Of a DNA stretch of 53,751 nucleotides, positions 1 through 53,751 are shown in pieces. Position numbers and translations under genes: made by a program. Source of the DNA: a virus (Duplodnaviria; Heunggongvirae; Uroviricota; Caudoviricetes). The notes under the pieces are model-generated. The model was not told where the DNA came from, made no database searches, and saw nothing but the letters and a program-made list of their open reading frames with translations. Positions within the stretch are counted from its first letter, which is position 1. Each line of letters opens with the position of its first letter. The stretch lies in IMG/VR virus record IMGVR_UViG_2698536392_000015, positions 1-53,751 of that record; one strand, 5' to 3'.

Positions 1-1976
1 GGATCGAAAAATATTGCACCTATTGAGATAATCGGGGCATCAGGATTTTTTCCCATGGTTTCAAGGTCGATCATTAGATGGTCACACGTCCTGCTGGTGG
101 ATGTGATAATGCGATGACCGTTCACCGTAATTGAGGGATCTGCCGTCTCGCCAGTTTCACTATAGCTGGCGTGGTCCTGAGCGCTGCCAGCATTCTCCTT
201 GTGTGGATGTTCAGCGCCTTCCATTTTCTCCGAATCGTCTTCCTGAACTTCAACCAGGTTCTTGTCATCGAATGTTTCCTGGTATGTTGCGTCGCCCATC
301 ACCGCGCCACAATCAGGGCAGTTGCCGCCACTCCTCTGACCGCAGGCGGTGCAGATCTTTTCCGGTTCCTGTTGCACTACTGGTTCAGGTTGTTTCGTTT
401 CTGGCTCGTTTTGTTGCGTATTTGGGCTGTTCTGTTCCGCTTTCTGGTCGTTCTGTTCCGTTTCTGGCTGATTCTGGTACACAGAATCGCGGGTCTGGAT
501 CCCCTTAATCCATTTCGGATCATTCGGGTCGCTAATCCCTTCAACAAATTCTCCGCGAGAGGCAGCCAGTAATTTGTCTGCATCGACAGGATTTTGGGGC
601 GGAATGTTTTTCCGGGCTTCATGGAGTTCTGCCCGCAGTTTCTGATATTTCGCATCAACAGAATTTATCTGTGGCTGAGCATCCATCGACTGCGTGTCCT
701 GATTATGTTCAGTTGTATCCGGTTCCACTGCTTCAGTCGTTGCCTGTTCATCTGCCATTGCGCCAGATGGCTGCGGTTTTTCTTCATCATCCTGTTTTCC
801 TTCTTTTGTTACACGCTGCGGCATTGGAGCAGAGGAGCGACCGCAGGCAATATCCACGATTTCTGGATCAGGGTTGGCATGGTCGGTTTCGGTCAGTACT
901 TTGTTCAGATATTCGGTAACACGGTGGGGAGTAGCCTCGATACCAATTGGTGCTTCTTTCACGGACGCAACCACTATCGCGCGGGAATAATCCAGGTGAC
1001 CAGGCATGGCGATGAATTTGTCACGAAAAACAGAAAAGGGCGGCTTATTCTCTGAAACGATTTCTTCAATGCGTTTGGCGTGTGCCGGATGTGGATTGTA
1101 AATATCGATGTCCATTGAACGGGCCAGAACGCCAGCGGCAACGTCACGTTCCACTGACGCATCATCGTGGACAAAACCTTCACCGCGATCGGTAAGAATT
1201 CCTCCGCCAGCATTAGCGCCGGATGGCGTGCGGCTGATGCGTAAAACACGATTTCCTTTCATCCACTCTTTTGTCAGCAGACCTCGATCGGTATAGTCAG
1301 CGTCCAGGTATGCTTCGAAAAAAGCAGTCATTAACCCCAGACTGGAATTAACGGGATTAGGGAAAACTTTGTCTGTGTCGCGTACCAGTTTGTGAAGGTC
1401 GCGAATCTCCAGCGGGTCGAGCAGCTTTGTGTTGTGGGAAATAGCCAGGGCAGTAACAGCAGGCAGTTCTTCAGCTCGTGCGATATGTAATGCCTGAAGT
1501 TCTTCCCGTGAAACGTGCGTTACCGGTTTTTCGCTGCCATGTTGCGCAAGCCAGCGAATGGGCAGTTCCTGACCGGAAATCGGCAGGAGCATATTATCCT
1601 CAATCTCAGCCATGTCTTCGCCATTGACGTTGGTATTGTCAGTGCTGGCTGGTTTGTCCTGAACTGAGGGGGAAGGCGCTATAAATATCATTGTGATGCC
1701 ATCTTCTCCGCCTTTTTCATAGCGGTTGCAGAATTCAGTATCGAACACACCTTCAGGCGGCAGGTCATTAACAATGGGCAAATTCACGCGAACAGGTTTT
1801 TTGAAATCCTCTTCGTCAAATCCAGCATCGTCCATTGCGACAACACCCCGTGATATTGCAACCGATAATTTTTTTGCTGTGCGCCAGTAAAAACCGCCTT
1901 TAATCCCAAGGCGTTTTCTGACTTTGTCATTTTTGGCTTCGTAATACAGTGCAATTTCTTCTTTATCAGTGCTCAT
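1..1976 (-). CDS. Large prophage exonuclease-like protein, 3' end outside window; possible RecE (exonuclease VIII) homologue
   Basis: Manual translation from ATG at 1976 (RBS GAGG 7 nt upstream) stays open to position 1, so it is absent from the ORF track. Contains a CxxC-x7-CxxC zinc ribbon, a Q/E/P-rich low-complexity linker and a terminal MIDLETMG...[11 protein letters not shown] stretch resembling a DEDD exonuclease Exo I motif. Sits where recE lies in Rac-like prophages. Confidence 0.55.
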
Positions 1977-2068
1977 TGATAAACCTCATAACTATTTTAA
2001 GGTTGTACGAATCCCTGCTATTGCTGGCATGCTTAATCAACGGGTATGGCGTTAATACGGCTGGCGGG

Positions 2069-2257
2069 TTATCCAGCCGGTATTTCGTTATTCAGGTACA
2101 GCGATACTTTGTTTAACGGGAGACATTCACCGGAAATTTTTTGCTCGTCTCTTGCCTGATGGCAGGATTCTTTACTGGCATAAATTCCGGTAATCACATT
2201 CTGTGGCTCACCTGTTATAAGAAAAACCGTCATCATCAGTGCAAACGCTGAACTCAC
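2069..2257 (-). CDS. Small hypothetical protein (62 aa), hydrophobic N-terminus
   Basis: Track ORF; overlaps upstream gene by 4 nt, directly upstream of the exonuclease gene in the same leftward operon. Confidence 0.35.
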   Translation of the reverse strand: MSSAFALMMTVFLITGEPQNVITGIYASKESCHQARDEQKISGECLPLNKVSLYLNNEIPAG

Positions 2258-2442
2258 TGCTGCCCTCCGAAAATGCCAAGTTCAAGAAGGGCAATTCTGG
2301 AGAGTATGGAATTATCATTGAGAAGATAAGGCTCATATTTTCTCATCCTGATGGCGTCTTCAGTAAACTCCCGGTTACTGAGCAGAATACCAATATTAAA
2401 ACACCCTTCAGACGTATTAACGTTTGGTAGTGACGTTTCCAT
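2254..2442 (-). CDS. Small hypothetical protein (62 aa)
   Basis: Internal ATG at 2442 preceded by GAGGA; the track ORF 2254..2547 starts further upstream. Confidence 0.35.
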   Translation of the reverse strand: METSLPNVNTSEGCFNIGILLSNREFTEDAIRMRKYEPYLLNDNSILSRIALLELGIFGGQQ

Positions 2443-3005
2443 TATCGCGTCCTCAACAATGAATTTTGTGATGCGGTGCCTGGTGCCTCCAGGTGACGTT
2501 AACCAGTTAACAATTAACGCCGGATACAGAGAATCCACCCATAACACTGTTTTTGGTTTTAACTGTTCCGCGTGCGCTGAGCCGCATTCACCGCATCACA
2601 AAATTCACTTTAAAAAGGGCGGCAGAGCAGCCACGGAGTAAAACTGATACCGCCAAACGTCACCAGAAAATTGATAACAGAGGGCGTTGCAGCGGGGTTG
2701 TCACTTAAGCGTATGGTCAGCCTGACAACCCGGTGTCCTCAAGGGGAAGGAATAACCCCGCCATACTTACCGCCGCGCCATTTCGCGGATTGCCACAACC
2801 AGAAGCGCACGGTCGAAGAAATTTAACGACAAGACTTATATGCAAAGGGATCTCGCCGTGCGCTTTCGTGTTATGCCCTGACTTTTCAGGGAAATATCCT
2901 TTCAGTAAACTGTCAGTACCGGATTCTTATCCGTGTCCGGCGCACGACCACACGTGACAGCGTGTTGGTCTCCATTTTTAACCCAGAACCTCAATGGAGG
3001 ATAAA

Positions 3006-3215
3006 ATGCCAAACAAAAAAAGAAATCCGCTTATTGAAAAACAGATTGAATGCCTGGTAAATCAACTCAGGCAATCAGGGTTATTAAAAACTCATTCAGA
3101 GTTGAGGCTCACAGAATCAGCATTCGACGATAAATTAAATAATGTCCTTTATAATGGCATTATTGATTTTAATCGTTCTGTTGGTCGCCGCGGCCCTGCT
3201 GGTGTTTCCTTATAA
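3006..3215 (+). CDS. Small hypothetical protein (69 aa)
   Basis: ATG at 3006 with GGAGG 5 nt upstream; AT-rich; convergent with 3216..3854. Confidence 0.35.
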   Translation: MPNKKRNPLIEKQIECLVNQLRQSGLLKTHSELRLTESAFDDKLNNVLYNGIIDFNRSVGRRGPAGVSL

Positions 3216-7998: not shown

Positions 7999-8130
7999 AG
8001 GCTATAAACCGACTAACAACTAAATACTGAAGATTTAAATCAGAAACGATTTTTATTAAATCCTTAACCGGAGGGATTCCTGCACCCTCAAATCATCAGG
8101 AGGCCGCCCGAAAGGGCGGTGGAGATAATA

Positions 8131-8652
8131 ATGGGAATAACTAAAGAACGATTGTTGGAAATAGCAAACCTTAGTGATTGGGCATTAAGTGATGAGAGAA
8201 TTGTTTCTCCTCATGCTTATGAGTCAGTTACAAGTATAGAAATAACAACAATGGCTAGAATGCTGCTTGGTTATTTCAAAATAGAAAATAAAAAACAGAT
8301 GGATAGTAATGTTGATATATGTGAGATTTTAGACGATTGGGGGGCTTGGGTTGTGGCTGGTAATAGTTCTATTGATTGGCAGGAAATAGCTGATAAATAT
8401 AAAAATGTTGTTCCTCATGGTAAAAAATCACGTCGTCAGTGCAGCAATGATGAAGGGCGAATTATTGACATTAGTATCCTTAGGTTAGAAAGATATAAGC
8501 AACAAGAATATGAGTTAATTGTTGCTCATTTCGTGATTGGTTTATCTCTTCGTGCTATTGCAAAGCAACAAGGATGTTCAGATGGAACAATTCGTAAAAG
8601 ATTGCAAAAAGCCTTAGGTTTTTTGACTGGATATATAGCAATTACCAGTTAA
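8131..8652 (+). CDS. Late antiterminator Q-like protein
   Basis: WGAW motif, conserved RRQC stretch and C-terminal HTH-like ...SDGTIRKRLQKALG pattern resembling phage-82-type Q as recalled; ATG 8131 with GGTGGAG RBS. Confidence 0.6.
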   Translation: MGITKERLLEIANLSDWALSDERIVSPHAYESVTSIEITTMARMLLGYFKIENKKQMDSNVDICEILDDWGAWVVAGNSSIDWQEIADKYKNVVPHGKKSRRQCSNDEGRIIDISILRLERYKQQEYELIVAHFVIGLSLRAIAKQQGCSDGTIRKRLQKALGFLTGYIAITS

Positions 8653-9290
8653 GAGTCAGCGGTTTTTTTACCAGTGTAATGGTATAAGGATACTCCCATG
8701 TGTCTTACATGATATGGAAGCGCTGTTGCTGGATGCTTTGTGATACTCTTAAAGCGGAGGGGAGAGCCTTCCGCTTCAATTTCTGCGTCCGAAACGGTCG
8801 TAGAGAAAAATTCTTTCCATTCATTGAATTTTACTGCTGATTTGTCAGACTTTATATAAATTAGAATTCCTCCATGATCGTCACGTGACGTACCCGTGCC
8901 GTAACGTTCGGTTAGCTGAATCCAGCCATTATGAATAGATTTGGGGCCTCTCCATAATTTTGCTTCACCGATCCATTCGAATTTTCCGAATTGATGTTTA
9001 ACTAATAAATCAACGTGACCGCCATGTTGAGTATCATGTTCAACATCATAAAACCTACCTTTCAGGAAATTTTTGATCGACGCTGTTAGCTCGTCCTCTC
9101 CCCACTTAGCATCTTGATAGAAGTGTTTGTCATTTTCTAAATTCTGAATAGCGTCGTCTAAATCTTCATAGAGTTGCTTTACAAAAATATTTTTGTCTGC
9201 AGCTAATTTTCTTTGAACCATTCCCCTAAATTCAGGATCCATTCTAATTAATGATTGAAGGTCTGCAGTACAGATGTTTACATCACTCAT
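8649..9290 (-). CDS. Hypothetical protein with PD-(D/E)xK nuclease-like motif, gene 3 of a three-gene operon
   Basis: GHVDLL...GEAK spacing compatible with a PD-(D/E)xK core; start MSDVNIC at 9290 with GGAGAG RBS; overlaps the upstream gene stop. Confidence 0.5.
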   Translation of the reverse strand: MSDVNICTADLQSLIRMDPEFRGMVQRKLAADKNIFVKQLYEDLDDAIQNLENDKHFYQDAKWGEDELTASIKNFLKGRFYDVEHDTQHGGHVDLLVKHQFGKFEWIGEAKLWRGPKSIHNGWIQLTERYGTGTSRDDHGGILIYIKSDKSAVKFNEWKEFFSTTVSDAEIEAEGSPLRFKSITKHPATALPYHVRHMGVSLYHYTGKKTADS

Positions 9291-9711
9291 GCAGACTCTC
9301 CAAAAGACTCGAAGGAGTAAAGTATGGATAAAGATACTGGCTAAAATTATCAACCAATTCGCCAGTTTCTGGATGGTAAAAACTTCCTGTGTCTAAAGCA
9401 TAGGAAATAAGATCATCTTCAACTGGTATTGGTTCTTCCGTTAAATTATCAATGTATTGAAAATGCATATCCAATAGATGTGCTTTATAGCTAGATAAAT
9501 AATCAGTTGCTTTTATTAGCAGGATATAGTCATCTTTCGTATCAGTTAGATAGGTTAAACCATTGATAAGGGTTTTGTATGTAAAGTGATTGATATTTTT
9601 AGCATCTTTACTAACCAGAAAAAGAAAAAGATCACGACACACACTGCGAACAGGATCATTAAAATCCTGCTCTATTTGCGTGATAATGTCGTGATATATA
9701 CTCTTTTTCAT
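9283..9711 (-). CDS. Hypothetical protein (142 aa), gene 2 of the operon
   Basis: ATGA start/stop overlap with gene 1; AT-rich; no recognisable motif. Confidence 0.5.
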   Translation of the reverse strand: MKKSIYHDIITQIEQDFNDPVRSVCRDLFLFLVSKDAKNINHFTYKTLINGLTYLTDTKDDYILLIKATDYLSSYKAHLLDMHFQYIDNLTEEPIPVEDDLISYALDTGSFYHPETGELVDNFSQYLYPYFTPSSLLESLHE

Positions 9712-10799
9712 TTATGGCCTGATGATCTCGCTCTTCTTTTCTCTTCACAGGACTTAACAGAATCCAATATTTTTTCAACAATAAATATAATCGAATCAAT
9801 GTTGTTACAGTTCTTCGCAATTGCTTCATGCAACCTAATTCTAGGATTATCAAGCATTGTCCTTTTTCCTGGTAATATTAACTCTACTGATAAAATATGT
9901 GAAGAACTTTGTGGTAAATCCCAAATTTTTCCCAACTTAAACTTTGTCAATATTGGGCTTGCGGACTCTCCACTATGATGGTAAACATCTTGACGCAAAC
10001 ACTTTTGACTTGGTTTGAGTTTTAAAGAACTTGTATTGCCATCTGAGGTGATAAAAGATACATGAGAAATTCTGCCATCTACTTTTTCGTAAAGAACTTG
10101 TATTGAACCAAATAATTCAAGAGGATTGTTTAAAATAACGCCAGCTTCTTTTTTTATAAATTTAGCCACAAGGTATTGTTGAGGCTGTGATTCACTTCTT
10201 GGAAGGATAGATAAATCAATCGTAAGAATTAATATTTTTTCTGCAGGCATTAGCATGATGGTATTAAAGCATTGCGTGACTTGGCGTGTTTTGCATTTTA
10301 TTTCTCCACCATTAGCACGTAATTCCATACCCGCATCGCTAAGATGTGTTGGGTCAAGCTCTATCACTTCAGTGTAATACGCTTTGGATAAAAAAACAGC
10401 AGTGTCAATTTGTTTATCACGAATGATATCTTGACGTAGTTCAGCAAAATGCAGCTCAGTATCAGCAACTAACAGCTCCTCTCTGGATAAAGGAGTTGGG
10501 TATTTTTCTGAGAAGGGGCTATTGTCCTTTTTCTGATTTGTGAAAATTGTTTGTAATTTTGCTACGTCTTCATCGGTGATTCTATAAATAGAAAGTAATC
10601 GATTCCCGCTAAAAATTAAACCTTTCCAGAAATCGTCGATTCTGTCTTTTAGGTCGGGATTATGCTGAACTACACTATTTACACGTTCAATAAAAAGGGG
10701 TAATCCTTGGGCCGTTACACCCAGTGATGAACCAAGAAGCTTACGGGTGTTGCGCCAGCCAAAGCGTGAATTGATGTTTTTTACTGTTTGCTCAAGCAT
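9708..10799 (-). CDS. Hypothetical protein (363 aa), gene 1 of the operon
   Basis: ATG at 10799 with AGGAAG RBS 5 nt upstream; no nucleotide-binding or other recognisable motif. Confidence 0.5.
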   Translation of the reverse strand: MLEQTVKNINSRFGWRNTRKLLGSSLGVTAQGLPLFIERVNSVVQHNPDLKDRIDDFWKGLIFSGNRLLSIYRITDEDVAKLQTIFTNQKKDNSPFSEKYPTPLSREELLVADTELHFAELRQDIIRDKQIDTAVFLSKAYYTEVIELDPTHLSDAGMELRANGGEIKCKTRQVTQCFNTIMLMPAEKILILTIDLSILPRSESQPQQYLVAKFIKKEAGVILNNPLELFGSIQVLYEKVDGRISHVSFITSDGNTSSLKLKPSQKCLRQDVYHHSGESASPILTKFKLGKIWDLPQSSSHILSVELILPGKRTMLDNPRIRLHEAIAKNCNNIDSIIFIVEKILDSVKSCEEKRRARSSGHK

Positions 10800-11145
10800 T
10801 AACACTTCCTTAATTTTCCCTTAACAATTTAGGGTGCTAAACTTTTTTGCGCAGTTTACATAAAAAAATAGTGCGTACGCAAAAACTATCTAACATGATG
10901 AGCTTTAACCGGGAAATTTGTATATGTTGTGAGCATAAAGTTGGCTGAGAAATCTAAAACGGGTAGAATGACTGCGGGTGCTTGAGGCTATCTGTCTCAG
11001 GCATGAACACCAAAAGGCAGATAGAGAAAAGCCCCAGTTAACATTACGCGTCCGGCAAGACGCTTAACATTAATCTGAGGCCATATCTATGCTCTACACA
11101 CGTAGGTTAGCCTCTTACGTGCCGAAAGGCAAGGAGAAGCAGGCT

Positions 11146-11301
11146 ATGAAGCAGCAAAAGGCGATGTTAATCGCCCTGATCGTCATCTGTTTAACCGTCA
11201 TAGTGACGGCACTGGTAACGAGGAAAGACCTCTGCGAGGTACGAATCCGAACCGGCCAGACGGAGGTCGCTGTCTTCACAGCTTACGAACCTGAGGAGTA
11301 A
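11146..11301 (+). CDS. hokD: Hok-family membrane toxin
   Basis: Protein MKQQKAMLIALIVICLTVIVTALVTRKDLCEVRIRTGQTEVAVFTAYEPEE matches HokD/RelF as I recall it; AAGGAG RBS; upstream in-frame extension is mok-like. Confidence 0.85.
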   Translation: MKQQKAMLIALIVICLTVIVTALVTRKDLCEVRIRTGQTEVAVFTAYEPEE

Positions 11302-12114: not shown

Positions 12115-12430
12115 CGTGCGGGTATTACTTAGACCTGTTCTGGTGCCTGAGCTTGGGCTGGTGGTCCTTAAGCCGGGCCGTGAATCCATACAGATATTTC
12201 ATAATCCTCGAGTGCTGGTGGAACCGGAACCAAAAAGCATGCGTAATCTGCCATCCGGAGTCGTTCCTGCCGTTCGCCAGCCGCTGGCGGAAGACAAAAC
12301 ATTGCTGCCGTTTTTTAGTAACGAACGGGTGATTCGTGCTGCTGGCGGCGTTGGCGCATTGTCCGACTGGCTATTACGTCATGTTACATCCTGCCAGTGG
12401 CCTAATGGCGATTACCATCATGTAACCAAG
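12077..12430 (+). pseudogene. Coding-like ORF running into the Mu-like left end, probably a host prophage gene disrupted by the insertion
   Basis: ORF stays open up to the junction and stops just inside the Mu-like end; C-terminal region is protein-like. Confidence 0.35.
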
Positions 12431-50132: not shown

Positions 50133-50541
50133 GATAAAGATCTCCTTTTTATGCATCTCTGCTTTACAGGAGACCGGGGAATATCATAGGATACGCCACG
50201 AGCTCGAAGTAAAGCATTGATGCAAAATTGTCTAAATCGGCCCAGAATAGTTCGCGCTATCTGGGTCGCCCTTTATGTATGTAGTATCCTGTTGATTTGA
50301 AACATACTACATATACGCGCGATCCTACCTTCACTGTATAAAAAGTCAATAAAATGATCATTTTATGATCGTTTTCACCACCTAACTCTTCGTTTTCTTT
50401 AAGTAAATAATCACCTCCCTGAATCATTGTTGATGACTTTTCAATCTATTTGTTGTATCAATTAAACAAATCGAATCGATCGTTTTTGTCGATCGATTGC
50501 ATGAGAAAGGCATCAACAACAAAGCAGGAGGTTATGCGGCC
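50133..50541. promoter_or_regulatory. AT-rich divergent control region with GATC cluster and palindrome upstream of com
   Basis: GATC at 50320, 50356, 50367, 50478, 50491; perfect 9-bp inverted repeat AATCGATCG-N7-CGATCGATT (50474-50498). Confidence 0.5.
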
Positions 50542-50727
50542 ATGTATCGAAACATACGGTGCCGACACTGCAATAAGCTACTGGCACGGGCCAGTTTCAG
50601 TTATCTGGAAGTAAAATGTCCGCGCTGCAAAACCCTCAATCAAATCACATCTCAGAGCGCCACAGAGCACCCCACATACACAAGGAAATCCTGCCGTGGG
50701 GAACAAGAAACATTACTTTCAGTCTGA
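50542..50727 (+). CDS. com: Com-like zinc-finger translational regulator
   Basis: MYRNIRCRHCNKLLARASFSYLEVKCPRCK aligns with Mu Com (MKSIRCKNCNKLLFKADSFDHIEIRCPRCK) as recalled; AGGAGG RBS; overlaps the downstream gene start. Confidence 0.8.
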   Translation: MYRNIRCRHCNKLLARASFSYLEVKCPRCKTLNQITSQSATEHPTYTRKSCRGEQETLLSV

Positions 50728-51748
50728 TAAGTCACTAACCTATGGTTCAGTATGCAGTGGTATTGAAGCTGCGACAGTAGCCTGGAGCAATCTTGGCTGG
50801 AAAGCCAGTTGGTTCAGTGAAATAGAGGACTTCCCGTCAACACTTCTTTCATATCGCTGGCCCCATATACCAAATCTTGGTGATATGGCTTTGCTTGCGC
50901 CTCGTATCAGGGATGGGCTTATTGAAGCACCAGATATTCTTGTAGGTGGAACTCCGTGTCAGGCATTCAGTATGTCAGGCAAACGAAAAGGCCTTTCAGA
51001 TCCACGGGGGCAGTTAACACTGTCTTTTGTTGAACTGGCGAATCAGATAGATACCGTTCGGGCATCGCTCAATAAATCCCCCTCAATAATCGTATGGGAA
51101 AACGTCACAGGAGTTTTAAGTAGCCATGACAATGCATTCGGTCATTTTCTTGGTGCGCTGGCCGGAGCAGGTTGCGCATTACAGCCAGCAAGGAAAAGAT
51201 GGGCAAACGCTGGTGTTGTGTCTGGACCATCGCGTATCGTCGCCTGGCGAGTACTTGATGCCCAATATTTCGGAGTCGCCCAGGCTCGCAGAAGAGTGTT
51301 TGTTGTGGCAAGTGCTGGAAAAAGGCTCGATCCCGGAAAGGTATTATTTGAGTTCCCGCCTGTGTCGCAGGGCGATAAAAACTATTACGGAAAGAAGAAA
51401 AAATCCGAATCCCTTCTTGATCAAGGCATTGAAGGAAAATTGCACCGATATTGCCTTGAAGCATTGCCAAAACGAACAGGCACAGTAATAGCTGGCTATA
51501 ACGGAACAACTAACCAGGACATGACTATGTCTGGTGGGCTCATAGTTGAAAGAGCGCCATATTCAAGGGTTCGTAGGTTGACGCCAACCGAATGCGAGAG
51601 GCTACAAGGTTTTCCCGATGGATATACAGATATTCCATGGAAAAATTCATCTCCAGCTCATCGTTATAAGGCCATTGGAAATTCAATGCCTGTACCGGTC
51701 ATGAAATGGATTGGTCGAAGAATACAGGAAGCGTTAAACGAAGTTTAA
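50696..51748 (+). CDS. DNA (cytosine-5)-methyltransferase
   Basis: C5-MTase motifs: GSVCSGIEA (I-like), GGTPCQAFSMSGKRKG (IV), IIVWENVTGVLS (VI), AQARRRVFVVA (VIII), RRLTPTECERLQGFPDGY (C-terminal); GTG start overlapping com. Confidence 0.85.
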   Translation: MGNKKHYFQSDKSLTYGSVCSGIEAATVAWSNLGWKASWFSEIEDFPSTLLSYRWPHIPNLGDMALLAPRIRDGLIEAPDILVGGTPCQAFSMSGKRKGLSDPRGQLTLSFVELANQIDTVRASLNKSPSIIVWENVTGVLSSHDNAFGHFLGALAGAGCALQPARKRWANAGVVSGPSRIVAWRVLDAQYFGVAQARRRVFVVASAGKRLDPGKVLFEFPPVSQGDKNYYGKKKKSESLLDQGIEGKLHRYCLEALPKRTGTVIAGYNGTTNQDMTMSGGLIVERAPYSRVRRLTPTECERLQGFPDGYTDIPWKNSSPAHRYKAIGNSMPVPVMKWIGRRIQEALNEV

Positions 51749-51824
51749 ACCTAAGCAAAAGACATTATGAAGTTGGTTTTTGTGCCGTTAAAAGATGTCT
51801 TTAAGGAGTGCAAAGGAAAGCGCC

Positions 51825-51918
51825 AATTTAGTATCAAAAAAGATGCTTATCGGCGCTTTTCATCGGTATCAAATGAAATGCAAATCGGTATCAAAAAAAT
51901 CGCCGCGCTATAATCACA
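51825..51918. repeat. Right-end transposase-binding repeats (attR, R1-R3 like)
   Basis: GTATCAAA at 51831, CGGTATCAAA at 51864 and 51886, inverted relative to the left-end motifs. Confidence 0.6.
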
Positions 51919-51953
51919 CTGAAACAGTCATTCACCGTTATGGTACCGGCGCA

Positions 51954-52661
51954 ATGGTGTTGTGCTGGCACTGCGACAACCAGCTGCGCGACCAGACATC
52001 TGATTCACTGGCGCAACTTGCTCAGCAGAATCTGGTTGCCTGGATGATTGACGTCATCCGTCACGCAATAAGCGGTACGCAGGAGAGGGAGTTATCGCTG
52101 GCCGAATTATCCTGGTGGGCGGTCTGCAATCAGGTGGTGGATGCACTACCTGAGGCAGTAGCGCGTCGTTCGCTGGGATTACCAGCGGAAAAAATCCGCT
52201 CAGTATACCGTGAGAGCGACATCGTACCGGGAGAGCAGACCGCCACCAGCATACTGAATCAGCGCACAAAAAATCTTGCGCCGTTGCCTCACGTCCACCA
52301 GCAACAACCCTCACCACAGGAAAAGGCGGTGGTCAGCATTGCCGTTGATCCGGAGTCTCCGGAATCTTTCATGAAGCGGCCTAAACGTCGCCGTTGGGTA
52401 AATGAGAAATACACGCGCTGGGTAAAGACACAGCCGTGCGCGTGTTGTGGAAAGCCAGCCGACGATCCCCATCACCTGATCGGCCATGGTCAGGGCGGCA
52501 TGGGGACAAAAGCCCACGATATTTTCACGCTACCGCTGTGTCGGGAGCATCACAACGAGCTTCATGCGGATCCGCTGGCGTTCGAAGAAAAGTATGGTTC
52601 CCAGGTTGATTTGATTTTTCGTTTTCTTGATCACGCCTTTGCAACAGGCGTACTTGGGTAA
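51954..52661 (+). CDS. DUF968-type (YdfU-like) prophage protein, probably the 3' portion of a gene disrupted by the Mu-like insertion
   Basis: C-terminal CACCGKPADDPHHLIGHGQGGMGTKAHD...PLCREHHNELH motif; track ORF start 51795 lies inside the Mu-like end repeats. Confidence 0.45.
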   Translation: MVLCWHCDNQLRDQTSDSLAQLAQQNLVAWMIDVIRHAISGTQERELSLAELSWWAVCNQVVDALPEAVARRSLGLPAEKIRSVYRESDIVPGEQTATSILNQRTKNLAPLPHVHQQQPSPQEKAVVSIAVDPESPESFMKRPKRRRWVNEKYTRWVKTQPCACCGKPADDPHHLIGHGQGGMGTKAHDIFTLPLCREHHNELHADPLAFEEKYGSQVDLIFRFLDHAFATGVLG

Positions 52662-52673
52662 AGGAGGTGACTG

Positions 52674-53033
52674 ATGCGTACAGAGTTTGTTTTGCCCTGG
52701 CCGCCGACGGTGAACACTTACTGGCGACGTCGTGGCAGCACATATTTTGTATCAAAAACCGGTGAGCGTTATCGCCGGGATGTGGCGCTAATTGTTCGCC
52801 AGCAGCGCCTGCAATTACATCTGTCCGGAAGGCTGGCGATAAAGATTATTGCCGAGCCACCGGATAAGCGTCGCCGTGACCTGGACAATATTCTGAAAGC
52901 GTTGCTGGATGCGCTGACGCATGCGGGAGTACTCATTGATGATGAGCAGTTTGATGAAATCAATATTGTACGTAGTCAGCTTGTTCCTGGTGGTCGGTTG
53001 GGTGTGAAGATTTACAAAATTGAGAGTGAGTGA
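52674..53033 (+). CDS. rusA: Holliday junction resolvase RusA
   Basis: VLPWPPTVNTYWRRRG...KRRRDLDNILKALLDALTHAGVLIDDEQ matches RusA family as recalled. Confidence 0.85.
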   Translation: MRTEFVLPWPPTVNTYWRRRGSTYFVSKTGERYRRDVALIVRQQRLQLHLSGRLAIKIIAEPPDKRRRDLDNILKALLDALTHAGVLIDDEQFDEINIVRSQLVPGGRLGVKIYKIESE

Positions 53034-53572
53034 GCGTAAATATGATATATCCGGAAATGACAGGCAAAAGCGGCGAACATTTACGCCTGAACACGCTGGA
53101 AGCAGTCTGGATCCAGGGGAAATTACGGATGTGGGGGCGGTGGTCGTATATCGGTGGGGGTAAATCCGGAAATATGTTTAACCGGTTACTGGTTTCGAAA
53201 AAGCTGACGAAAACAGCAGTTAATGAGGTTTTACGCAGAATGAAGAAATCCGGGCTGGAAAAACCGGAACTTGAGGCATTTTTTCGGGATATGACCAGAG
53301 GGAAGCAGAAGAGCTGGTTGTCACATTGTACAGACACAGAGGCGTTGATTATTGATCGCGTTATCAGTGAGGTGCTTGGGGAATATCCCGGGCTAATCAA
53401 TATTCTCCGGCAAAGGTACGAAGGACGGGGAATGAGTAAGAGAAAAATGGCAGAATGTTTAAATCGTACTCACCCGGAATGGTGTTTCAGCACATGTGAG
53501 AAACGTATTGCAGGTTGGTTAGCCGTGGCTGAACACATGCTTTATGTACCTATGCACGATTCATTTCGATAA
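53030..53572 (+). CDS. Putative late antiterminator (Q-like)
   Basis: Position after rusA and before a terminator; WGRW motif; family not recognised with certainty. Confidence 0.45.
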   Translation: MSVNMIYPEMTGKSGEHLRLNTLEAVWIQGKLRMWGRWSYIGGGKSGNMFNRLLVSKKLTKTAVNEVLRRMKKSGLEKPELEAFFRDMTRGKQKSWLSHCTDTEALIIDRVISEVLGEYPGLINILRQRYEGRGMSKRKMAECLNRTHPEWCFSTCEKRIAGWLAVAEHMLYVPMHDSFR

Positions 53573-53668
53573 AAAAGCTTGCTTTTTTACGCAGAAACAG
53601 CTTTAATTCCCGTAAGCTTCGCAAAGCTGTATCGCGAGGCGAAACGCAAGTTTTTTTCGCACAAGGAA

Positions 53669-53692
53669 GCCACCTGAAGGTGGTTTTTTTTG
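53669..53692 (+). terminator. Rho-independent terminator downstream of the Q-like gene (tR'-like)
   Basis: CCACCTGAAGGTGG hairpin followed by TTTTTTTT. Confidence 0.65.
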
Positions 53693-53751
53693 TGTCTGCA
53701 ATATACAGCAGCGCCATAAATTCGCTGGTGGTTATTAATACCGTTCTTTCA

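Follow-up and report, generated by a model that had tools for sequence, protein, structure and literature searches.

The 53,751-nt window analysed here (IMG/VR virus record IMGVR_UViG_2698536392_000015, positions 1 to 53,751; features lie on the plus strand unless stated otherwise) contains two genes for Q-like antiterminators, Q1 at 8131–8652 and Q2 at 53042–53572. Our analysis indicates that the interval 53042–53691, comprising Q2 and the sequence elements that follow it, is very probably the late-gene switch of a single Qin/Rac-like prophage split by a Mu-like element, and that Q1 belongs to an accessory cassette of the same prophage. The initial annotation had identified the two Q-like genes at 8131–8652 and 53030–53572, the latter behind rusA and ahead of a strong terminator, and had suggested a mosaic or tandem lambdoid structure; homology searches place both proteins in Q-like antiterminator families, with no sign that either belongs to an unrelated one.

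An open reading frame (ORF) is present at 53030–53572. Its GTG start at 53030, which overlaps the stop codon of rusA, is an alternative and less likely start, and the ATG at 53042, yielding a protein of 176 aa, is preferred because the homologues and the Pfam model begin there; the NCBI annotation pipeline PGAP places the start at the same codon in Escherichia coli 90-3040, where the Q2 locus is 99.9% identical (L001; L numbers denote the loci used for comparison). The protein is a full-length member of the DUF1133 family, matching PF06576 with an E value of 9.5e-111 and 367.5 bits (cutoff 23.1), with residues 5–180 of the 180-aa GTG reading frame aligned to positions 1–176 of the 176-position model. 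It also scores 34.5 bits against PF06530 (Phage_antitermQ; gathering cutoff 26) over 96 residues, which makes it by sequence a marginal and distant member of the family of Q21 and Q933W, and matches phrog_753, ‘anti-termination protein Q-like’, so that the original identification of a Q-like gene after rusA is borne out. When a profile of 30 Q2 homologues was compared with the PDB, the solved Q21 (6p18, 6jnx) was the sole significant match (E 8.4e-5), in two collinear segments covering nearly all of Q21.

The position of the gene is in line with this assignment. The gene order in the window is ydfU fragment, rusA and Q2, where rusA (52674–53033; Holliday-junction resolvase, PF05866 with E 9e-17, phrog_34) is the last gene of the nin region before Q2. 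Q2 thus occupies the canonical Q position at the end of the nin region, with the lysis and late genes beyond it. In strain 90-3040, whose prophage is 99.7% identical, the region downstream of Q2 encodes tRNAs, a nanS-like esterase, a holin, a lysozyme and the terminase.

Directly after the Q2 stop codon lies a predicted late promoter, PR'(Q2), at 53579–53607, consisting of the −35 hexamer TTGCTT (53579–53584), a 17-bp spacer that contains TACGCAGAAAC (53588–53598) and the −10 hexamer TTTAAT (53602–53607). A second −10-like hexamer, TAAGCT (53613–53618), follows 5 bp past the −10 and is a candidate sigma-dependent pause element at about +1 to +6, given an inferred transcription start at about 53614–53616; behind it comes a conserved initial transcribed stretch, TCGCAAAGCTGTATCGCGAGGCGA (53619–53642). 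To estimate how often this geometry recurs, we used a set of Q2 homologues from phage records (L003–L006) and from one genome per species (L007–L037), with identities of 45–83%, and scored the pattern TTGnnn, 16–18 bp, −10, 4–7 bp, TAnnnT around the DUF1133 stop codon. It was found in 27 of 35 DUF1133 genes compared with 3.9% of random windows, in most cases with exactly 17 and 5 bp. The −10 hexamers of the relatives are TTTAAT, TTCAAT, TTGAAT, TTAAAT and TATCTT, and the first, second and last bases of the second hexamer (T1, A2 and T6) are conserved among TAAGCT, TATGCT, TACGCT, TAGGCT, TAAGAT and TATCCT.

The third element is an intrinsic terminator at 53664–53691, the analogue of tR', with the hairpin core CCACC-TGAA-GGTGG (53670–53683), a stem extendable to about 11 pairs and a T8 tract (53684–53691); the terminator scan listed the palindromic hairpin on the minus strand only, and the plus-strand T8 was read from the sequence. 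The hairpin begins 98 nt past the Q2 stop codon, in agreement with the strong tR'-like terminator first reported about 100 bp downstream, and 33 of 36 DUF1133 genes taken from other genomes and phages have a terminator-like site within 200 nt of the stop codon, whereas such sites occur in 17% of random 200-nt windows drawn from these loci. The predicted RNA from PR' to tR' is about 77 nt long, and the fold of 53615–53693 has an energy of −27.8 kcal/mol (z −2.6), with none of 200 shuffled sequences as stable. Rfam searches of the region downstream of Q2 gave sub-threshold chance matches only, with no family and in particular not isrK. As judged from the sequence, promoter, promoter-proximal −10-like pause element and intrinsic terminator are all present and conserved, as expected of a Q cassette.

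The minimum-energy fold of 53573–53700 contains in addition a long-range hairpin, AAAAGCUUGC...GCAAGUUUUUUU (53573–53657), which joins the A-rich stretch after the Q2 stop codon to GCAAG and a U7 tract (53651–53657) and spans the PR' promoter. It is present in the window and in the near-identical 90-3040 locus and absent from more distant relatives; it could form solely in transcripts reading through Q2 from upstream and, on the weak evidence of this fold, may act as a terminator of the early transcript. In the 191–192-aa forms of DUF1133 (L005, L014, L017–L033), the whole predicted −35/−10 promoter lies inside the C-terminal coding tail, the stop codon falls in, or ends, the predicted −10, and the second −10-like hexamer follows a few bases further on; the sequence of the tail is therefore doubly constrained.

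The layout resembles that of bacteriophage lambda, in which a −10-like hexamer at about +1 to +6 of PR' induces the sigma-dependent pause where Q loads. In lambda, as in the Q2 unit, Q is the last gene of the early rightward operon, the promoter follows directly, the hexamer lies at about +1 to +6 and a short terminated transcript, 6S RNA, precedes the late genes. The spacing between the −10 and the pause hexamer is 6 bp in lambda and 5 bp in the window; the lambda Q protein belongs to an unrelated family (PF03589), and its transcript has 194 nt compared with the predicted length of about 77 nt here. The logic of Q cassettes has been summarised previously (bioRxiv 10.1101/651190), and the likely mechanism, for Q1 and Q2 as for Q21, is an RNA-exit-channel ‘nozzle’ that is loaded at a sigma-dependent pause. 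We infer the following course of transcription, pausing, binding and antitermination. Q2 would be made from the early rightward operon after rusA, and the sigma-70 promoter TTGCTT-17 bp-TTTAAT right after its stop codon would start the late transcript. TAAGCT at about +1 to +6 should then hold the sigma-containing RNA polymerase in a promoter-proximal pause, as at lambda PR'. Without Q2, transcription would stop about 77 nt on at the hairpin and T8 (53670–53691), leaving a short RNA that corresponds by its location to lambda 6S RNA, IsrK and StxS. When Q2 is present and bound at a site within the spacer or close to it (candidate site TACGCAGAAAC), the polymerase would become resistant to the terminator and read into the late genes.

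A role as Q is also suggested by what is known of DUF1133 in other phages. A Q2 homologue is the sole annotated Q in Rac-SA53, vB_EcoS-683R6 and Klebsiella phage 1 LV-2017, where it is flanked by nin-type genes on one side and by toxin, tRNA or lysis genes on the other, and a DUF1133 protein appears as ‘Q antiterminator (HHpred)’ in a survey of Shiga toxin (Stx) phages (PMC8136144). In two further loci, L010 and L012, the DUF1133 gene is 77–78% identical to Q2 and is followed by an Rfam isrK RNA 33 nt 3' of the gene. The antQ-isrK locus of Gifsy-1 has the same arrangement, and AntQ has been described there as a Q-like antiterminator whose overexpression arrests growth, with rescue by Rho (PMC4825925). 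The Gifsy-1 unit shares with the Q2 unit the DUF1133 family and a short terminated RNA after the Q gene, whereas its promoter type, TTGACT-18-TATATT without a second TAnnnT hexamer and with IsrK and C4 RNAs, differs from the type found in the window. IsrK and C4-antisense-like RNAs stand together directly after DUF1133 genes at L012 290–476 and 3588–3768 and at L010 3575–3776, so that the pair occurs twice within 6.5 kb in the Salmonella locus L012.

Several observations weigh against this interpretation of Q2. NCBIfam has no model for the protein, and its RefSeq name is merely ‘DUF1133 family protein’. AlphaFold2 models of Q2 and Q1 were built on alignments of close homologues; the Q2 model has a mean predicted local distance difference test score (pLDDT) of 53, and a Foldseek search of the PDB with it returned nothing at E ≤ 0.001 and only noise, so that the predictions are too poor for confirming a fold like that of Q21. 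Profile–profile comparison links Q1 and Q2 only weakly (probability 4%, E 0.01), though equivalent regions are aligned, and direct BLASTP of one against the other gives E 0.37; their common ancestry is suggested by the separate link of each to PF06530 and Q21, not by a direct match. A strict consensus promoter scan finds no promoter after Q2, where the −10 has a T at position 2, and for this reason the call of PR'(Q2) rests on the comparative geometry. We found no biochemical demonstration of a DUF1133 protein loading at a specific site or antiterminating, and the evidence for AntQ is genetic and comes from overexpression (PMC4825925). The window stops at 53751, so the late genes are those of the near-identical strain 90-3040, in which the Q2 gene itself (L001 15130–15660) has an internal stop, GAA to TAA after ...NRTHP; the late switch of that strain, which has a non-Q cassette at the Q1 position, is probably dead. 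In the present genome, the Mu-like insertion may cut Q2 off from its normal early transcription, and the switch may be inactive.

Given that the match to PF06530 is modest (34.5 bits) and that Q21 is reached by profile only (E 8e-5), Q2 could be a DNA-binding regulator other than a processive antiterminator, for example an activator of the adjacent promoter, with the downstream hairpin simply ending the early operon. The window-specific long hairpin with its U run could end the early transcript. We consider such a regulatory role improbable. An activator has no need for a terminator between its promoter and the genes, whereas a promoter, a −10-like hexamer and a terminator 45–75 nt further on, before the late genes, are the signature of a Q cassette, and this layout is kept across relatives with 45% to 83% identity despite the divergence of the sequence; moreover, the genetic behaviour of the Gifsy-1 homologue is that of an anti-terminator (PMC4825925).

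The Mu-like prophage of 39,492 bp occupies 12421–51912 and is bounded by 4-bp repeats, ATCA, at 12417–12420 and 51913–51916. The match to the lambdoid flank ends at 12420, and window positions 50500–51912 are 99.9–100% identical to the right end of Mu-like phages in the Stx phages LC727881 and LC727895, for which the element end and the 4-bp duplication are annotated. A 5-bp target duplication, as made by Mu, was looked for, but the identity extends over just 4 bp (ATCA), in agreement with the annotation of the same element elsewhere. The insertion cuts ydfU (DUF968) into a 5' fragment at 12116–12420 and a 3' fragment at 51917–52661, and in-silico deletion of 12421–51916 restores a complete ydfU with a product identical to the YdfU of 90-3040. 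The two flanks are therefore one prophage split by Mu, and the insertion now puts 39.5 kb between the early region with Q1 and the rusA-Q2 segment. The backbone is that of a Qin/Rac-like (PPompW-type) lambdoid prophage, with DicF and sok RNAs, DicB, YdaS/YdaT, DUF977, hok, ydfU and rusA as markers; the Rfam matches that mark it as such are sok of the hok/sok locus at 10976–11151 (+; 117 bits) and DicF at 2617–2668 (−; 75 bits).

These relationships bear on the question of whether the two Q genes could belong to two lambdoid prophages, or a prophage and a remnant, lying in tandem and each with its own Q, as the presence on one strand of two Q-family genes at a distance of 45 kb might suggest. 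Such a structure is highly improbable. Removal of Mu rejoins ydfU exactly, and the healed flank is collinear with the single prophages of 90-3040 and E2348/69. In E2348/69 the prophage lies beside ompW; from a Q-family gene it runs through three opposite-strand genes, hokD, DUF968 and rusA to a second Q, which belongs to another family and precedes tRNAs and lysis genes; in Salmonella prophages the order is Q1, opposite-strand cargo, hok, the nin genes DUF1367-YbcO and a DUF1133 gene as the second Q. In these Mu-free prophages the two Q genes lie within about 5 kb of each other, and neither an integrase nor an attachment site nor structural genes separate them. Hence, the suggestion of a tandem does not hold, and that of a mosaic holds in the ordinary cassette sense only, for the Q1 cassette at 8130–10963.

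At the right junction, the listed ORF 51795–52661 is a chimera, in which an ATG within the Mu right end leads in frame into the 3' part of ydfU and the whole DUF968/HNH-like domain is kept. A gene for a C-5 cytosine methyltransferase (50696–51748; PF00145) lies at the Mu right end. No terminator-like site was found between this gene and the end of Mu, so transcripts of Mu might read out into the ydfU fragment, rusA and Q2. The exact junction of Mu and ydfU has no counterpart in the complete E. coli genomes of the collection searched, with no place covering at least 80% of the query.

Q1 (173 aa) is a paralogue of the Q21/Q933W family and, by sequence, a clear member of PF06530 (109.9 bits, cutoff 26); it has a sigma70-region-4-like C-terminus with a helix-turn-helix, matches phrog_79 and phrog_3323, and is linked to the solved Q21 structure with E 6e-4, which confirms the Q-like gene originally called at 8131–8652. 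Residues 66–175 correspond to the Q core, which is 37% identical to the Q of VT2-Sakai and 58–62% identical to short forms of 113–120 aa, including annotated Qs of Stx phages, and the N-terminal 60 or so residues are an extension specific to long forms. A fusion with the small ORF preceding the Q of Stx1_499 was considered as the origin of this extension and rejected, as BLASTP gave no match. The AlphaFold2 model of Q1 has a mean pLDDT of 45. Long-form Q1 genes, with 65–96% identity and a very conserved N-terminus, occur in E. coli and Salmonella, always in the interval from DUF977 to hok, and the opposite-strand cargo behind them differs from one to the next. Q21 is matched by Q1 (E 6e-4) as well as by the DUF1133 profile (E 8e-5), but identity is very low, and Q21 binds a direct repeat, whereas the candidate sites in the window are a palindrome for Q1 and a half-site for Q2.

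Three cargo genes on the minus strand (8649–9353, 9283–9711 and 9708–10805; phrog_9664, phrog_11490 and phrog_12777, all of unknown function) follow Q1, the stop codon of which overlaps the first convergent gene. Pfam, NCBIfam and PADLOC gave nothing significant for the three, which form a candidate accessory or defence module, the defence role being a guess. Homology to the sister prophages ends at 8129 and resumes at 10964, and the interval 8130–10963 (about 2.8 kb) has a GC content of 33–39% compared with 47–53% in the flanks. From the homology break and the shift in GC content it follows that Q1 belongs to one cassette with the three convergent genes. In the sister prophages the same place is taken by an unrelated pair of genes, ‘sce7726 family’ and ‘beta family’, without a Q (L001 10537–12172). 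Other cargo found in the slot comprises a 159-aa protein with DUF6731 (L039–L041 6531–7940) and a 395–410-aa protein, also seen as a 406-aa form, with an NA37-like nucleoid-associated protein (L042–L044 6513–8881; L087 3719–5921); the latter pair is shared by Salmonella prophages and a viral contig, L087, in which the 395–410-aa protein is phrog_5023.

No cognate promoter lies directly downstream of Q1. A candidate is found beyond the cargo, at 10872–10896, where the motif TGCGTACGCAAAA combines the 10-bp palindrome TGCGTACGCA with an A-tract, then ACTATC and the −10-like TAACAT (10891–10896); by its sequence, this is a candidate Q-binding element and remnant of a late promoter. The exact 12-mer GCGTACGCAAAA occurs once in the window (10873–10884), just beyond the cargo and 2.2 kb past Q1. 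In each Q1-type cassette retrieved it stands immediately past the cargo, whatever that cargo is, and it is absent from the sce7726/beta allele and from the other 38 loci compared. A scan of viral contigs for the 14-mer gave 120 loci, mostly chance matches, of which 27 have a Q1-like gene, and in all 27 the motif lies downstream of that gene on the same strand, at distances of 53 nt to 2.5 kb. The distance is 53 nt past the stop codon for Qs that are 29–34% identical to Q1 and 1.3–2.5 kb for those with at least 48% identity. Among the former, four contigs have the motif 53 nt after Q with no opposite-strand cargo; in L094 the order is Q, motif, terminator and structural genes. L087 has Q, two opposite-strand genes, then motif, −10 and terminator, and then holin, endolysin and spanin. 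The consistent association, downstream and on the same strand, argues that the motif is part of the Q-dependent late promoter of the Q1 subfamily and probably its Q-binding element; the interval between Q and promoter in this subfamily is, as far as these sequences go, a cargo slot.

A corresponding promoter is found in Stx phages. Sp5 and VT2-Sakai have a Q933W/PR'/StxS/tR' unit; the Q of VT2-Sakai is 37% identical to Q1, and PR' of this phage has been mapped experimentally, with a start 258 nt upstream of tR' (PMC7547250). In the mapped PR', the palindrome ACGATCGTAAAA aligns position for position with the Q1-type GCGTACGCAAAA, each 7 nt before the −10. PR' of VT2-Sakai lies directly after Q, whereas in the Q1 lineage 1.3–2.5 kb of opposite-strand cargo is interposed, and the Q1 unit of the window, unlike that of VT2-Sakai, lies upstream of a second, different Q cassette. 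Stx1_499 has a 115-aa Q, 61% identical to the Q1 core, as its sole annotated Q, and the order is Q, three opposite-strand genes, promoter region and stx1AB; the trio is homologous to and collinear with the cargo of the window (33, 27 and 23% identity), and the promoter region, with GCGTACGCAAAA 7 nt before the −10, aligns gap-free to the mapped PR' of VT2-Sakai. Both VT2-Sakai (L047 1975–2000) and Stx1_499 (L046 10810–10832) have a strong hairpin, CCCGCCGATGCGCGGG, with T7 about 30–55 nt past the PR' start, which is apparently not the main stop because the published tR' lies 258 nt downstream.

In the window, neither the conserved initial transcribed sequence TAAGAGTGGTTAC nor a terminator is present after the motif, and the hok/sok backbone begins about 80 nt later; the missing sequences make the activity of the Q1 promoter here uncertain. 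Both absences, together with the unrelated cassette at the same spot in sister prophages, would be explained if Q1 were a functionless passenger, part of a block copied from a phage like Stx1_499 and truncated in its promoter at the joint, so that only Q2 matters for late expression. We hold this explanation to be less likely than not, since hundreds of E. coli and Salmonella contigs have intact long-form Q1 genes that are diversified (65–96% identity) and keep a highly conserved extension at the N-terminus, and the 12-bp motif is exact beside three different cargo sets while both flanks diverge. Another reading makes the palindrome TGCGTACGCA mainly an operator or −35 of a leftward cargo promoter, with Q1 as its repressor or activator and not an antiterminator at that site. 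Minus-strand elements can be picked out by eye, without a promoter scan (TTGCGT-18-TAAACT in the window, TTGCGT-17-TATATT in Stx1_499), 45–80 nt upstream of the first cargo gene, and Q1 has the sigma-region-4-like helix-turn-helix. This role as the main one seems unlikely to us. The motif is found 53 nt after Q without opposite-strand cargo in the four viral contigs, including the one with listed ORFs, L094, where terminator and structural genes follow; it aligns gap-free to the experimentally mapped PR' of VT2-Sakai (PMC7547250); and the Salmonella version has no usable minus-strand −10. The two roles of TGCGTACGCA, leftward operator and Q-dependent late promoter, could coexist.

The Q1 motif and the Q2 promoter share a half-site. 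TACGCARAAAC occurs in the window only at 10876–10886, within the Q1 motif, and at 53588–53598, in the spacer of the Q2 promoter, whereas the chance expectation is 0.08 and none of 100 shuffles reaches two matches. The shared sequence fits a distant kinship of the two DNA-binding domains and may permit cross-talk. A more far-reaching proposal, which we advance tentatively and regard as rather doubtful, combines three parts: the Q gene and its distal promoter bracket an opposite-strand accessory slot, with Q acting in trans; a Q1 tier operates ahead of the DUF1133 tier; and the half-site mediates cross-talk. According to this proposal, Q acting in trans at the distal promoter would restart rightward lytic transcription beyond the cargo, and thereby avoid antisense collision and Rho termination across opposite-strand, possibly anti-phage, genes. 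In Rac/Qin-like prophages such as the present one, the N-terminally extended Q1 together with its motif would supply hok, ydfU, rusA and Q2 with transcripts as a first tier of antitermination, and the shared half-site would allow cross-talk between Q1 and Q2.

The Q2 unit itself is ordinary, a routine late switch whose protein family already carries a Q-like annotation. The enclosure of a cargo slot between Q and its promoter is a modestly new arrangement; a literature search of limited reach found nothing relevant on a Q-linked cargo hotspot, which is weak evidence of novelty. DUF1133 is a large and poorly named family, with hundreds of clusters in Enterobacteriaceae, and includes AntQ of Gifsy-1 and the Q of prophages encoding the LT-II toxin; the Q2 unit provides this family with a concrete layout of promoter, pause element and terminator and with a candidate binding site. 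In the Q1 subfamily, antiterminator and promoter can lie 1.3–2.5 kb apart, with opposite-strand cargo that varies among phages in between. This arrangement is seen ahead of stx1 in at least one Stx1 phage, and it can also stand upstream of a second, different Q switch. An active Q1 would make the expression of late genes and toxin in prophages of this kind dependent on an antitermination circuit with two steps or with cross-talk, and would make the slot a predictable place for finding new accessory or defence genes of prophages.

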